A DNA stretch of 19,042 nucleotides from a virus, in UHGV virus genome UHGV-1351768. One strand, written 5' to 3'. How positions within the stretch are numbered: the first letter of the stretch is position 1; each line of letters begins with the position of its first letter. Position numbers and translations under genes: made by a program. This document shows, piece by piece, positions 1-5,334 of this stretch. The notes beneath the pieces were generated by a model that was not told where the DNA came from, did not search any database, and saw only the letters and a list, made by a program, of their open reading frames with translations.

Positions 1-294
1 AGGCACAGATACCGTCTCTGGAGGGGCGGCGTAAAGCGGAGTTACGGTAATTTCGTACTCGTTTATATCCTCGTCGCTGATATTTGCGAAATAGCGAAGG
101 ATGCCTTTCTCTCCACGACTACGAGCGTCAGAGTCCTGAATGATATACGCCACAGGCTCTGCTTCCAGCGATGCCAGCGCAATCCGTGCCAGTTCTTCCG
201 CTTCTTCTGCTGGCAGTACAACGTTGCTACCAGGTCCGTATGTTTCGCGCCACTGCTTGATTGTCAGTAGTCGCTCTTTGGTAATAGTGATCAT
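1..294 (-). CDS. hypothetical phage early protein, partial (3' end lies beyond window start; 98 N-terminal codons present)
   Basis: Minus-strand reading frame from ATG at 294..292 (MITITKERLLTIKQWRETYGPGSNVVLPAEE...) with no stop before coordinate 1. Its ATG overlaps the stop of the upstream gene (ATGA junction). Absent from the ORF track because it is incomplete. Confidence 0.45.
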   Translation of the reverse strand, partial: MITITKERLLTIKQWRETYGPGSNVVLPAEEAEELARIALASLEAEPVAYIIQDSDARSRGEKGILRYFANISDEDINEYEITVTPLYAAPPETVSVP

Positions 295-806
295 GCCGCG
301 TTTCCTTCTTTCTTATTAACAATTACACCGTCATATATTTCATTAAGGTGCCCTCTCAACTCCATGCGCCTTAATGCAGATAACATGTAATCGCATTCAA
401 CCTGCTTATTTCCAGTAAATGGCTTATCGTCAGGATTACCCCAACAGCAATTACCCTTGGGCCACCCATGTACTTTCCGTACTCTTCCGTTAACAACGTG
501 AAGTAATCCCCAGCCAGGTGGTAAATCCTCAATTGAAATAATTCCCGGCTCACTAATAAAGAATCGCCAGTCGCCCATTCCAAGAGACGGATTTTTACGA
601 AAACGCTTTTTTCTATCTGCTAACAAGTCAGCACGAGAACACTTCGCTTCTATCAGGCATGATGCTGAATTTCTGAATCCCATAGCATCTGGCTGTTCTC
701 CGGTACTGGTTACAGCTATAAAGCGGTCATGAAAACAAACCTTGAACCCGTTGCGCTTAAGGAACTTGTACGCAATCTGACAGAGTTCGCGGTGTGTTAA
801 CGCCAT
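291..806 (-). CDS. PD-(D/E)XK nuclease superfamily-like protein (possibly MmcB-like), 171 aa
   Basis: ORF 291..887 trimmed to internal ATG at 806..804, which has SD AAAGGAGAG 6 nt upstream and lies 1 nt after the stop of the preceding gene. Motif PD(AMGF)...LIEAKCS fits the PD-x(n)-E-x-K nuclease core. Family assignment is from memory. Confidence 0.55.
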   Translation of the reverse strand: MALTHRELCQIAYKFLKRNGFKVCFHDRFIAVTSTGEQPDAMGFRNSASCLIEAKCSRADLLADRKKRFRKNPSLGMGDWRFFISEPGIISIEDLPPGWGLLHVVNGRVRKVHGWPKGNCCWGNPDDKPFTGNKQVECDYMLSALRRMELRGHLNEIYDGVIVNKKEGNAA

Positions 807-807
807 A

Positions 808-1233
808 TCACTCTCCTTTAATGCGAATGCCAGCGACGCGTGGCACATTAACTTCCACAATGCGCACAGTTGGTTTGTACATCTCAATTGCTGTCAGCCA
901 GTCAGCTCCTGTCATGTGCTTTTCTGCATCGCCATTAGTCCACTGAACCGGTACACCAATAGCCTTCATCGCGATTTCTATTTCCCCGGCAATGGCGCTT
1001 TTTCCGCAACCAGTAAAACCAGAAACAACGACAAGAACTTCACCTTTGGCTGGTTTTATTTCCCGAGCTTCCAGTTCTGCAATGCGCTTTTTGTCTGCTT
1101 CCCGTTCATCCAGTAGTGCCAGCACAACCTGAGGTGTGACTTTCATACGAAATGCCAGCAATTTTTGAGGCGTTGCTACTGTTTCAATTGCTACTGCCGC
1201 CTCACGCAGTGCCTGATAGTTAATTTTGCTCAC
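808..1233 (-). CDS. hypothetical phage protein with Walker A-like motif (GFTGCGKS), 141 aa
   Basis: ORF 808..1254; preferred start is GTG at 1233..1231, preceded by SD AAGGAGG with 6-nt spacer, and overlapping the stop of the upstream 55-codon ORF (GTGA). Contains [16 protein letters not shown], but only about 60 aa follow, too short for a complete P-loop NTPase domain. Confidence 0.5.
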
Positions 1234-1397
1234 TGGTTGCCTCCTTTGCGCCACATCGCATTCAGATATTTGTTGTCATTAACAGAACCGAAACTATTTC
1301 TCTTAAGCAATTCCTCTCTCGATGGCATTGGCTTTACGCGCTGGCGAATAATCATTTCTGCCGGAAGAATGCCGGGATTGTATGCAAGTCCTCTCAT
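1230..1397 (-). CDS. small hypothetical protein, 55 aa ([55 protein letters not shown])
   Basis: Below the length cut-off of the ORF track. ATG at 1397..1395 overlaps the stop of the upstream gene (ATGA); SD GGAGAG 7 nt upstream; its stop overlaps the GTG start of the downstream gene. It fills an otherwise unexplained 140-bp gap. Confidence 0.35.
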
Positions 1398-1675
1398 GAT
1401 TTACTCTCCACGAACTGGTCAATAGCCATGCTAAGTGACACACCTAAAGTCTCGATATGCTGCTGAATATCCTGTAGCGTCTGCGCCTGAGATAACAGGA
1501 TTTCACGGTTGCATAACTCTTTAACCAGATGCTCAAACTTGCTGTAATAACCGATACGACTTAGTGTTTCTTTCCCTGCATTCTCGCCTTCTTTGATAAT
1601 TCCTCTTTCGCTAAGAATCAGATCTTGTTTGGTTCCGGTAATAACGTATTTGCCGAGGTCGATGTTTAGCTTCAT
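1394..1675 (-). CDS. hypothetical phage protein, 93 aa
   Basis: Complete ORF co-oriented with the early-left operon; ATG at 1675 with GGAG upstream; tightly packed with neighbours. Confidence 0.5.
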
Positions 1676-1691
1676 TGTTAATTACTCCATG

Positions 1692-2006
1692 TTAATTTAT
1701 TTGTATGCCTGCTCTTTCTTCATCGAGTTTTTTTAGCTTGTATCGCATAGCTCTTACTGAATAAATTGAGCGGCAGGTTGCAATTGCTATTTCTTCTGCG
1801 GAGAACTTACCGAAAAGTGATACTTCGGCTCTTGTCCAGCGTCTTCCACGAAGTCGGCTAACAATGTCAGCGCCAATCCTTGTTGCTTTCGCCATAACTG
1901 CTTTTTCAGTCCTTTCCAGTTTTTCAGCGATAACTTCAACTGGCATTGTCGCCGCTACTTCGCGCAAGAAATCGACTTCCCATTTCTCCCATGGAGTCTT
2001 TTTCAT
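1692..2006 (-). CDS. hypothetical phage protein, 104 aa, with two tandem W-x-E-(F/L) repeats (possible small DNA-binding protein)
   Basis: Complete ORF with ATG at 2006, 11 nt downstream of the preceding stop. Internal repeat WEKWEVDFLREVA... / RRWTRAEVSLFGKFSAEEIA... is suggestive of paired helix-turn-helix-like units (inference only). Confidence 0.45.
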   Translation of the reverse strand: MKKTPWEKWEVDFLREVAATMPVEVIAEKLERTEKAVMAKATRIGADIVSRLRGRRWTRAEVSLFGKFSAEEIAIATCRSIYSVRAMRYKLKKLDEERAGIQIN

Positions 2007-2017
2007 AGGCGATACCG

Positions 2018-2500
2018 TTATTTGATAAGAAGTGAAGGTTTCCCAACTTTGAGTTGAGCGCCTGGGATATTTATTCCTGCTTTTAGTTGGTGCTTGATTG
2101 CCAACTTGTCGGCTTTAATTGTCGTTTCGAACTCAACGTATTCAGGAGGAAGGGCGCTTGAGTCGATGATTTCTACAGTTTCTGACGGTTTGCGGATTGT
2201 TACCTGGTGAATACCTGCTCGAATATTTTTCTTGCCAACCATTTCAAGCGATGACGCTATATATGATTTGATGCTGTCAATCTTATTTTGAATTACTGCG
2301 GCTCGCTCATTTAGTGACTTTGCCTCTTCCTTGAGGCGCTCAGCATAACCAGATTCATTTTTGATGACGGAAAGAAGTTGCTCTATTTTATCGGTAAATT
2401 CTCCTTCCATGCCTTCTATTGTGTCAGCAATCATCTCTGGCTCTAAATCTGAATCCATCAATTTTGCGTATTCATTGGCTATTTCATACAGTTTGCTCAC
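2018..2500 (-). CDS. Siphovirus Gp157-family protein (recombination-module accessory protein), about 160 aa
   Basis: ORF 2018..2506; preferred start is GTG at 2500..2498 with SD GGAGG and 6-nt spacer. Sequence pattern LYEI..EY...EAI.GE...LKEEAK.L.ERA...IRKP.ETVEI.D...LPPEY...KLAIK..LKAG..IPGA matches my memory of the Gp157 family, which typically sits next to RecT/Sak genes. Confidence 0.6.
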   Translation of the reverse strand: MSKLYEIANEYAKLMDSDLEPEMIADTIEGMEGEFTDKIEQLLSVIKNESGYAERLKEEAKSLNERAAVIQNKIDSIKSYIASSLEMVGKKNIRAGIHQVTIRKPSETVEIIDSSALPPEYVEFETTIKADKLAIKHQLKAGINIPGAQLKVGKPSLLIK

Positions 2501-3387
2501 TGGCAACCTCCAGTTTCGCTTTGCATTCTATGTAAATGGCTTGTACGTTCTGCTGCAATTTCATTCCAGATGTCAGGCGATATGCTTCTGCAAAATATCG
2601 CTTCAAATCATCCATGTTTTCTGCCTGAGCCATTTCATCACAAAGAAGTTGTGCTTTTTCCATTATTTCCTGCTGGCGTTTCCGTTCATCTTCGCGGATA
2701 TCTTCCTCTGATTTGTGCGGCATAACTGGTTCCTGATGCATACCTTCATCTTCGTTAAGCAGGTGAATGGCATTATCCAGTCGCTGGGCTTTAGGCCAGT
2801 ATTTGCTGGCGCGTTTAACTATTGTTTTACGCGCCATCTCTTCCCAGAATGTTTTCCACGGTCCATTCTTTGCCTTGCTCGTTGCTTCCACAGCTTTAAT
2901 TTCTGCCAGACTCATTTCTTCAGTCAGGTAGTCACCATCTGCTGTTTTAACCGTGCAATAACCTCCAACAATAGAGCCTCGCTCACCAAATGCGTTGTAT
3001 TTGTGGGTTGGTGCTGAATCAAGGCCATTTGATTCATAGGTGTCGTTTGAGTACACCAGTTTGCATTGCCCCCACTTAATTGATCCTGTCGATTGTGCAA
3101 GATGAAGTAATCCCATGTAACTGATATCAAGGCACACCATGCCGTCGCGAGGAACCAGATAAGCCAGTTTGCTGGCCGGGTTTAAGGTGATGCCGATCGC
3201 CGCAACGTTGATGATAGCGTTCTGTGCGCGTGGTCGGATTTGCCAGTGCCGTTTTAGCCAGGTAATCATTTTTCTGGAAATACTGAATTGCAAACTGGCT
3301 TTCCTTAGCCCATGTCACCGTCTGTTCAGTCAATGCTCCGCAGAATAACTGCTCCTGCTGTTTAACGAATTCAACGATATTGCTCAT
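2484..3387 (-). pseudogene. recT: RecT-family single-strand annealing recombinase, interrupted by an apparent +1 frameshift (or sequencing indel) near 3225-3235
   Basis: C-terminal 247 codons in ORF 2484..3293 contain the RecT core (NGPWKTFWEEMARKTIVKRASKYWP, compare E. coli RecT NGPWVTHWEEMAKKTAIRRLFKYLP). The N-terminal 56 codons lie in a different frame (ORF 3127..3387, ATG at 3387 overlapping the upstream stop) and align with the RecT N-terminus (..KTALANPTT). The two frames can be joined by removing one base in ccgaccacgcgcacag (minus strand). Confidence 0.6.
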
Positions 3388-5058: not shown

Positions 5059-5334
5059 GTGGCTTCCATTTCCATCAGATGTCCTTCCTGCTCCGCTACT
5101 GAAGGCGTGGTGCGTAACGGCAAAAGCACTGCCGGACATCAGCGCTATCTCTGCTCTCATTGCCGTAAAACATGGCAACTACAGTTCACTTACACCGCCT
5201 CTCAGCACGATAAGCACCAGAAAATCATTGATATGGCCATGAATGGCGTCGGATGTCGCGCCAGTGCACGCATTATGGGCGTTGGCCTCAACACGGTTTT
5301 ACGTCACTTAAAAAACTCAGGCCGCAGTCGGTAA
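5059..5334 (+). CDS. insA: IS1 InsA (transposition inhibitor / N-terminal part of the InsAB' transposase), 91 aa
   Basis: ORF-track protein [43 protein letters not shown]... matches IS1 InsA; correct size and position within the element. Confidence 0.9.

Follow-up and report, generated by a model that had tools for sequence, protein, structure and literature searches.

Does tight translational coupling between a protein with a Walker A motif and a protein with a nuclease-like motif mark the two as a functional pair? The question is raised by one end of UHGV virus genome UHGV-1351768, a stretch of 19,042 nucleotides (nt) called the window below, where gene B and, immediately downstream of it, gene A lie on the minus strand. 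A sequence-only reading of the window had described the two open reading frames (ORFs), of 141 and 171 amino acids (aa), and their motifs correctly, and had taken them for a possible pair of nucleoside triphosphate (NTP)-binding protein and nuclease. Our analyses point to a different answer. A and B are probably independent accessory genes of a lambdoid early-left region, made adjacent by modular recombination, B being an Ea22 scaffold with a mini P-loop cargo and A a separate MmcB-like nuclease. The window is a lambdoid prophage with its early-left operon on the minus strand, and the hyper-mosaic region that holds A and B is the equivalent of lambda's exo-xis region or the "ea" region of P22. 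The two genes are the following.

808..1233, minus strand: gene B, 141 aa, Ead/Ea22-like mosaic protein.
291..806, minus strand: gene A, 171 aa, predicted MmcB-like PD-(D/E)XK nuclease-fold protein with an isoelectric point (pI) of 9.26.

The junction between the genes is as tight as had been claimed. B starts with a GTG at 1233-1231, with AGGAGG ahead of it, and stops with a TGA at 810-808; the ATG of A occupies 806-804, which leaves a spacer of 1 nt (GGAGAG TGA T ATG) and places the Shine-Dalgarno sequence of A within the final codons of B. The spacer is thus real, and what does not hold is the idea that it singles out this pair, the boundary being a generic one that A shares behind 46 upstream contexts. 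Across these distinct contexts, the DNA matches the window at approximately 100% identity between -23 nt and the ATG and at random level past -35; very diverse proteins are encoded upstream of A, yet nearly all of them close with ...AGIRIKGE or ...LRTKGE. A conserved junction of approximately 23-35 nt at the 5' boundary of the A module includes the 1-nt coupling, and, as the junction is common to so many contexts, the coupling is a built-in feature of that boundary.

807..840, minus strand: conserved module junction, made of the last 10 codons of B, the Shine-Dalgarno sequence AAGGAG, the TGA and the 1-nt spacer, recognised by DNA identity across contexts.

This junction, common to at least 46 upstream genes, resembles the recombination linkers that drive lambdoid-phage mosaicism. 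Tight coupling is, moreover, generic to the whole operon and not particular to A and B: the start of B overlaps the stop of an upstream DUF2737 gene in a GTGA at 1230-1233, and the DUF2737 gene in turn overlaps the preceding DUF5405 gene via an ATGA at 1394-1397.

The spacer and the coupling would favour the view that A and B form a functional cassette, for instance one for defence or anti-defence, with the Walker A protein as a sensor or binder of NTP that regulates the nuclease. The order B-A also recurs in some phages, including the P1-like phage JL22 and nine IMG/VR contigs, and accessory hotspots next to recombination genes have been argued to hold anti-immunity genes and proposed as their reservoirs, Ead/Ea22 proteins being sometimes fused to a relative of an anti-OLD protein (bioRxiv 10.64898/2026.07.10.737580). 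Co-occurrence speaks against such a cassette. We scanned IMG/VR for each of the two proteins and retained the 80 best matches per scan, 78 of the P-loop loci having enough downstream sequence. A lies directly downstream of the P-loop module in 9/78 of them and 0.5-1.5 kb away in a further 5/78, and in the remaining 64/78 no copy is found within 3 kb; the gene immediately downstream of the P-loop gene belongs to 19 different clusters. Seen from the other side, a P-loop module stands upstream of A in only 4 of the 80 A loci, in all of which A is 99-100% identical, and an A-family ORF is absent from all 22 distant P-loop loci. By itself, A is present in 643 phage records, lytic phages among them; in the Shiga toxin (Stx) phage Lyz12581Vzw the protein ahead of it is an Ea22 protein whose C-terminal domain is unrelated, and in the PADLOC collection neither protein matches a defence-system model at E ≤ 1. 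Together with the junction that A shares behind 46 upstream contexts, these counts largely refute the two-gene defence cassette, which we reject and consider very improbable, and with it falls the pairing of NTP-binding protein and nuclease suggested from the sequence. The adjacency of A and B is ordinary mosaicism in an early accessory region and not a fixed two-gene system. Given the argument on accessory hotspots, A or B, each by itself, may have a counter-defence role.

The independence of the two genes is also visible in the architecture of B, a feature missing from the sequence-only reading: the protein belongs to the Ead/Ea22 family. Its residues 2-57 match the Pfam model Ead_Ea22 (PF13935) with 42.8 bits (cutoff 27, E 1e-10), and an NCBI protein of the same length, 141 aa, annotated as "ead/Ea22-like family protein" (P0002), is 100% identical over the 87-residue query. 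Published descriptions of Ea22 divide it into an N-terminal region, a coiled coil that forms a tetramer and a C-terminal domain that varies (PMC10834534, PMC8614690), and B follows this tripartite plan: an AlphaFold2 (AF2) monomer model of full-length B, based on an alignment of 148 sequences, shows helices at residues 6-18, 22-31 and 34-57 with predicted local distance difference test (pLDDT) values of 79-90, followed by a separate C-terminal module. B is therefore an Ead/Ea22-family mosaic made of an N-terminal segment, a short coiled coil and a Walker A cargo of approximately 70 aa.

1063..1233, minus strand: N-terminal Ead/Ea22 segment and short coiled coil, B residues 1-57 (Pfam, AF2 and alignment).
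841..1050, minus strand: portable mini P-loop module, B residues 62-131 (profile search, near-invariant columns and stand-alone homologues).
997..1020, minus strand: Walker A motif GFTGCGKS, B residues 72-79, read from the sequence.
853..867, minus strand: candidate Walker-B-like strand V-R-I-V-E, B residues 123-127, picked by conservation; the Walker B label is inferred.

Relatives of B differ in just the manner expected of a mosaic. Phage JL22 has the same C-terminal module with a longer coiled coil ahead of it, and phage Lyz12581Vzw has kept the N-terminus of B and its RVAGIRIKG tail around an unrelated cargo; in alignment with these two homologues (L001 4666-5298 and L002 4666-5367), the coiled coil of B is approximately 45-70 residues shorter, which might alter its oligomeric state. 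A coiled-coil end reading ...KRIAELE(A/S)R precedes differing cargo domains in B and in another database protein (P0220) and seems to be a second recombination linker. Stx-phage Ea22 variants are known to be highly mosaic, with mutually unrelated C-terminal domains (PMC10834534, PMC8614690, PMC7093339), and a term search of PMC10834534, PMC8614690 and the OLD preprint found no P-loop cargo described for any Ea22 variant. Some Salmonella prophages encode fusions of the A domain itself to an Ead/Ea22 N-terminus (P0211, P0213 and P0224), which makes the nuclease and the mini P-loop alternative cargoes of one shuffling region. Five proteins of 240-252 aa (P0211, P0213, P0217, P0222 and P0224) combine an A-type domain with an Ead/Ea22-like N-terminus and Q/R-rich repeats.

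Is the Walker A motif of B then more than a chance match? The bare pattern is insignificant by itself: GxxxxGK[ST] is seen twice in the six-frame translation of the window, and 200 shuffles gave 0.55 on average and at most 4. The other occurrence, GVVRNGKS at approximately 5104-5127 on the plus strand, lies in a short ORF (5059-5334) in overlap with others and probably arose by chance. An incidental, meaningless motif in B would fit both the expectation of roughly 0.5 bare matches per six-frame translation and the P-loop matches of Pfam and NCBIfam, all of which fall under cutoff. It is refuted by conservation, and we put its probability at next to nil. A word-indexed homologue search had earlier returned only relatives of >92% identity, and the family was revealed by exhaustive searches and by searches seeded with a Methylobacterium protein. 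An exhaustive HMMER search of representative clusters (50% identity) with B residues 55-141 as the query matched 445 clusters at E ≤ 1e-3 and 351 at E ≤ 1e-10, and the matched region is constant across them, always the same stretch of approximately 70 residues. The sequence-only reading had made conservation among homologues a check of the motif, and conserved it is: GxxxxGK[ST] is kept in 145/147 and in 264/267 family members, and a motif so conserved is not there by chance.

The conservation extends well beyond the Walker A motif. Residues G72, T74, G75, G77, K78, S79, G83-E-I-E-I87, D111, W112, Y119, P121, E127 and N129 are near-invariant and E104, K105 and T108 invariant, E127 being invariant in one alignment (A5) and nearly so in another (A4); they form a GEIEI block after the P-loop, an EKxMTxADW loop, a YKP and a terminal V-x-I-V-E-x-N. 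Motif and surroundings thus vary hardly at all among hundreds of clusters from several bacterial classes. The position of the module varies: it is C-terminal in proteins of 110-623 aa and N-terminal or internal in unrelated others, and the Ead/Ea22 signature is present in only 29 of 148 module carriers. It also occurs by itself. Searching with an 84-aa stand-alone protein from Methylobacterium returned 120 clusters, 81 of them of at most 90 aa; such stand-alone proteins are 70-90 aa long and end 2-4 residues past the ...IVE stretch, and their genes adjoin phage integrases amid small genes of no known function. A genome scan by exact peptide patterns, which gives a lower bound of the taxonomic spread, located the module at 13 loci in gamma-, beta- and alpha-proteobacteria, several of these being stand-alone genes (one reading ...VVIVE). 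As judged from this sequence record, the module is a genuine, autonomous and portable mini-domain and its Walker A motif is not incidental.

Some carriers deserve separate mention. In five alpha- and beta-proteobacterial prophages (L170, L171, L172, L178 and L183), module genes of 72-87 aa stand among runs of 60-110-aa genes by the integrase. The neighbours of the module in the Mesorhizobium prophage among these (L172) are a Lar-like restriction-alleviation protein and a protein whose tail looks DUF551-like by eye, Pfam giving only a weak DnaJ_CXXCXGXG match. In the Ralstonia jumbo phage RSF1, ORF139 (L176 2012-3274) has a diverged module mid-way in a 420-aa protein without a Pfam match; together with its relatives in RSL2 and FLC6/8, it reads GRTGVGKS ... 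TVRVCERN, is 35-41% identical and has lost the EKxMTxADW loop.

What the module does is harder to say. The module has no above-cutoff match in Pfam, NCBIfam or PADLOC, and PHROGs contains it solely as families of unknown function. Below threshold, the best matches are APS_kinase, AAA_16, CysC, gluconate kinase and UvrA, with 15.8 bits for APS_kinase (cutoff 21.1) and 16.1 for AAA_16 (cutoff 32.6) in Pfam and NCBIfam P-loop matches far under their cutoffs. A complete P-loop NTPase core has at least five strands and typically at least 150 aa. At approximately 70 aa the module falls short of a complete alpha/beta core, and the earlier remark that B is too short for a full NTPase domain turns out to describe a family trait, the stand-alone members being hardly longer than the module in B. 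The topology beta-(P-loop)-alpha-beta-loop-alpha-beta is our assignment from the sequence, with no model behind it. At its end the module has a conserved V-x-I-V-E127 that agrees with the Walker B pattern hhhh[D/E], and no confident three-dimensional model puts this strand beside the P-loop. As the module is too small for a complete NTPase, it most likely binds a ligand as an oligomer.

The module could, alternatively, be a degenerate remnant of a kinase-type domain that no longer binds nucleotides and is kept for some other use, perhaps as a surface that binds proteins or serves as a decoy against a host or defence protein. Its approximately 70 aa contain no more than three strands by sequence assignment, with the rest of the core, the lid and the substrate domain gone; the AF2 monomer leaves it unfolded; it is acidic (mean pI 5.0-5.35), like the C-terminal domains of other Ea22 proteins, which have been suggested to bind some host protein (PMC10834534); and the GEIEI and EKxMTxADW blocks, conserved outside the P-loop, could make an interaction surface. 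The retention of all canonical Walker A positions in 264/267 members, from three proteobacterial classes and jumbo phages, is nevertheless hard to explain without phosphate binding, and a conserved glutamate closes the last hydrophobic stretch at the location of Walker B. Designed beta-(P-loop)-alpha polypeptides of only 40-55 residues, furthermore, bind NTPs as oligomers (bioRxiv 10.1101/2020.07.30.228619). A degenerate remnant thus appears unlikely to us, and less so than the other alternatives considered here. Acidity is compatible both with binding a nucleotide with Mg2+ and with binding a protein; it argues against direct nucleic-acid binding in the manner of the designed polypeptides, an option that we disfavour.

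Protein A can be placed with more certainty as to fold. Its motif region reads QPDAMGF...LIEAKCS, and the nuclease-like motif noticed earlier is embedded in a PD-(D/E)XK fold.

642..689, minus strand: catalytic-type motif of A, D40 (687-689) ... E53-A-K55 (642-650), then S57-R58-x-D60 (alignment, model and 3dnx).

Among 49 homologues, down to 59% identity, D40, E53, K55, D60, D64, GDWRF and GWGLL are invariant and S57 and R58 nearly so; the variability of the nuclease residues, the second check named in the sequence-only reading, is therefore nil at D40, E53 and K55. The AF2 model of A (pLDDT 86, predicted template modelling score 0.80) has the restriction-endonuclease-like alpha-beta-beta-beta-alpha-beta core, in which D40 opens strand 2 (residues 41-45), E53 closes strand 3 (48-54) and K55 comes next. 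Its closest structural neighbour is a member of the MmcB/DUF1052 family, and an extended active-site motif is common to both: in alignment, A shares the D...ExKxSRxDFxAD block with 3dnx, the structural representative of DUF1052/PF06319/COG5321 (PMC3424549). In Caulobacter, MmcB is a PD-(D/E)XK endonuclease that is induced in the SOS response and required for resistance to mitomycin C and cisplatin (PMC9578287). Profile databases say little about A: there is no NCBIfam match and no PADLOC match at E ≤ 1, the sole related match is phrog_5429, "DNA repair protein", at E 0.003, and A itself falls in phrog_9263 and phrog_631, both of unknown function. Its relatives in phage records come from P7, Stx, Klebsiella and Vibrio phages and virulent Ackermannviridae, and among the matches listed none is annotated as nuclease or repair protein. 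Alignment and model together identify A as an MmcB-like PD-(D/E)XK nuclease-fold protein and a distant relative of PF06319, not a member at the level of the hidden Markov model.

Could A instead be an ordinary recombination function, the missing nuclease partner of RecT and Gp157? The two genes had been noted near the pair, and they are indeed there, upstream of A and B in the same operon on the minus strand: Gp157, which PHROGs labels "Mu Gam-like end protection", at 2018-2506 and RecT at 2484-3293. Lambda Exo, RecE and YqaJ are PD-(D/E)XK enzymes too, RecT and Gp157 lie 1.2-2.5 kb upstream of A, and none of the seven ORFs scanned (291-3293, the ORFs upstream of RecT being outside the scan) matches an exonuclease family. 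The neighbourhood of A elsewhere does not bear this out. Homologues of RecT or Gp157 occur within 3 kb of A in just 5-7 of the 80 A loci; in Lyz12581Vzw, A stands beside a lambda-type exo; A is present in P1/P7-like and Ackermannviridae phages; and its fold is nearest to MmcB-like proteins, not to Exo or RecE. We reject a partnership with RecT and Gp157 on these grounds, regarding it as highly unlikely, and the link to the recombination module, raised as an alternative in the sequence-only reading, is not supported. The commonest neighbour of A lies on its other side. The gene downstream of A (1-294 of the window, minus strand) runs past the window start, and homologues of its N-terminal segment occur within 3 kb of A in 57 of the 80 A loci, which makes it far commoner there than the P-loop gene; in JL22 and Lyz12581Vzw, the gene at this position is annotated EaA or DUF551. 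One database protein (P0153) fuses A and EaA.

Several observations weigh against our account of two independent genes, one carrying a ligand-binding P-loop and the other a nuclease. The loci drawn from IMG/VR are mostly enterobacterial and closely related, and A and the P-loop gene do adjoin in approximately 5-12% of loci; a facultative interaction between the two proteins is possible. For the module, the AF2 monomer has pLDDT values of approximately 80 over B residues 60-100 and of 55-63 over 101-140 and contains no beta-sheet; Foldseek comparison of the B model with the PDB gave no fold match (best E 0.88); and in a profile search of PDB sequences, solved P-loop proteins match only over the P-loop, at E ≥ 0.014. 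Nucleotide binding by the module is predicted from motif conservation. For A, the Pfam MmcB model PF06319 fails to match (no Pfam match at E ≤ 0.1), and nuclease activity is predicted from fold and motif.

With these points in mind, we propose the following mechanism for the two genes taken as independent accessories. B would be an oligomeric scaffold of the Ea22 type, its coiled coil holding together and presenting several copies of the mini P-loop, which most likely binds a nucleotide with Mg2+ or another phospho-ligand across a subunit interface; the stand-alone modules would self-associate to bind their ligand. The Ea22 proteins of lambda and P27 are tetramers at full length, and their isolated C-terminal domain is a dimer. 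Ea22 has a pro-lysogenic effect (PMC10834534, PMC8614690, PMC7093339), and by analogy B would modulate early phage-host interactions, be it the lysis-lysogeny decision or counter-defence; tetramerisation and the pro-lysogenic effect are known for the Ea22 proteins of lambda, phi24B and P27 only (PMC7093339, PMC10834534). A, in turn, would be a basic, Mg2+-dependent DNA endonuclease, probably acting on damaged or branched DNA, and its junction would let it be translated behind any gene that recombination puts upstream. For the module as such, we tentatively suggest something broader: it may be an undescribed natural family of autonomous P-loops of approximately 70 residues, carried by temperate and jumbo phages of Proteobacteria either as stand-alone proteins or as portable cargo, that becomes a functional nucleotide-binding and possibly phosphotransfer unit only by oligomerising and serves as an early effector. 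Such an effector might, for example, sequester or modify a nucleotide signal or counter a host defence. We hold this as possible and somewhat doubtful.

Overall, the gene pair itself is ordinary, and it illustrates how the lambdoid early accessory region shuffles cargo at short conserved junctions; tight coupling in such regions is not to be taken as a functional link. For annotation, A and its relatives in 643 phage records can be labelled MmcB-like PD-(D/E)XK nucleases. The single unusual element is the mini P-loop, strongly conserved, approximately 70 aa long, without a Pfam model and occurring also by itself. Should it bind nucleotides, it would rank among the smallest natural P-loop units and be a tractable system for studying the minimal size of a P-loop and the use of nucleotides by small early phage proteins.

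Set beside known systems, B most resembles the Ead/Ea22 family, including lambda Ea22, P22 Ead and the Stx variants V1-V3, with which it shares the N-terminal signature, a coiled coil ending in ...RIAELEAR, a swappable C-terminal domain and a mosaic gene located downstream of the recombination genes in the early-left operon; it differs in its coiled coil, which is much shorter than that of most relatives. A resembles the MmcB/DUF1052 proteins in the motif block D...ExKxSRxD(F/L)xAD and in its small size (approximately 150-170 aa), but MmcB is encoded by a chromosomal SOS gene, chiefly in alpha-proteobacteria (PMC3424549), whereas A is phage-borne in gamma-proteobacteria and has, in addition, a conserved GDWRF/GWGLL region and a C-terminal helical extension.

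The mini P-loop has two points of comparison. Like the N-termini of the kinase-type P-loop NTPases (APS, gluconate and shikimate kinases) and like UvrA, it has a GxxGxGKS after a hydrophobic stretch and then a helix; only the first 25-50 residues align, however, and the module is without the remaining core, the lid and the substrate regions. The designed P-loop prototypes, to one of which in the PDB (6c2u, "phosphate-loop protein") the P-loop segment gives a weak match at E 0.4, are very small P-loop units as well and need oligomerisation (bioRxiv 10.1101/2020.07.30.228619). These prototypes are laboratory constructs, basic and binding nucleic acids, whereas the module is natural, acidic and strongly conserved in phages. 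If the oligomer-dependent P-loop reading is true, the module would be a living counterpart of these laboratory-built minimal "P-loop prototypes".

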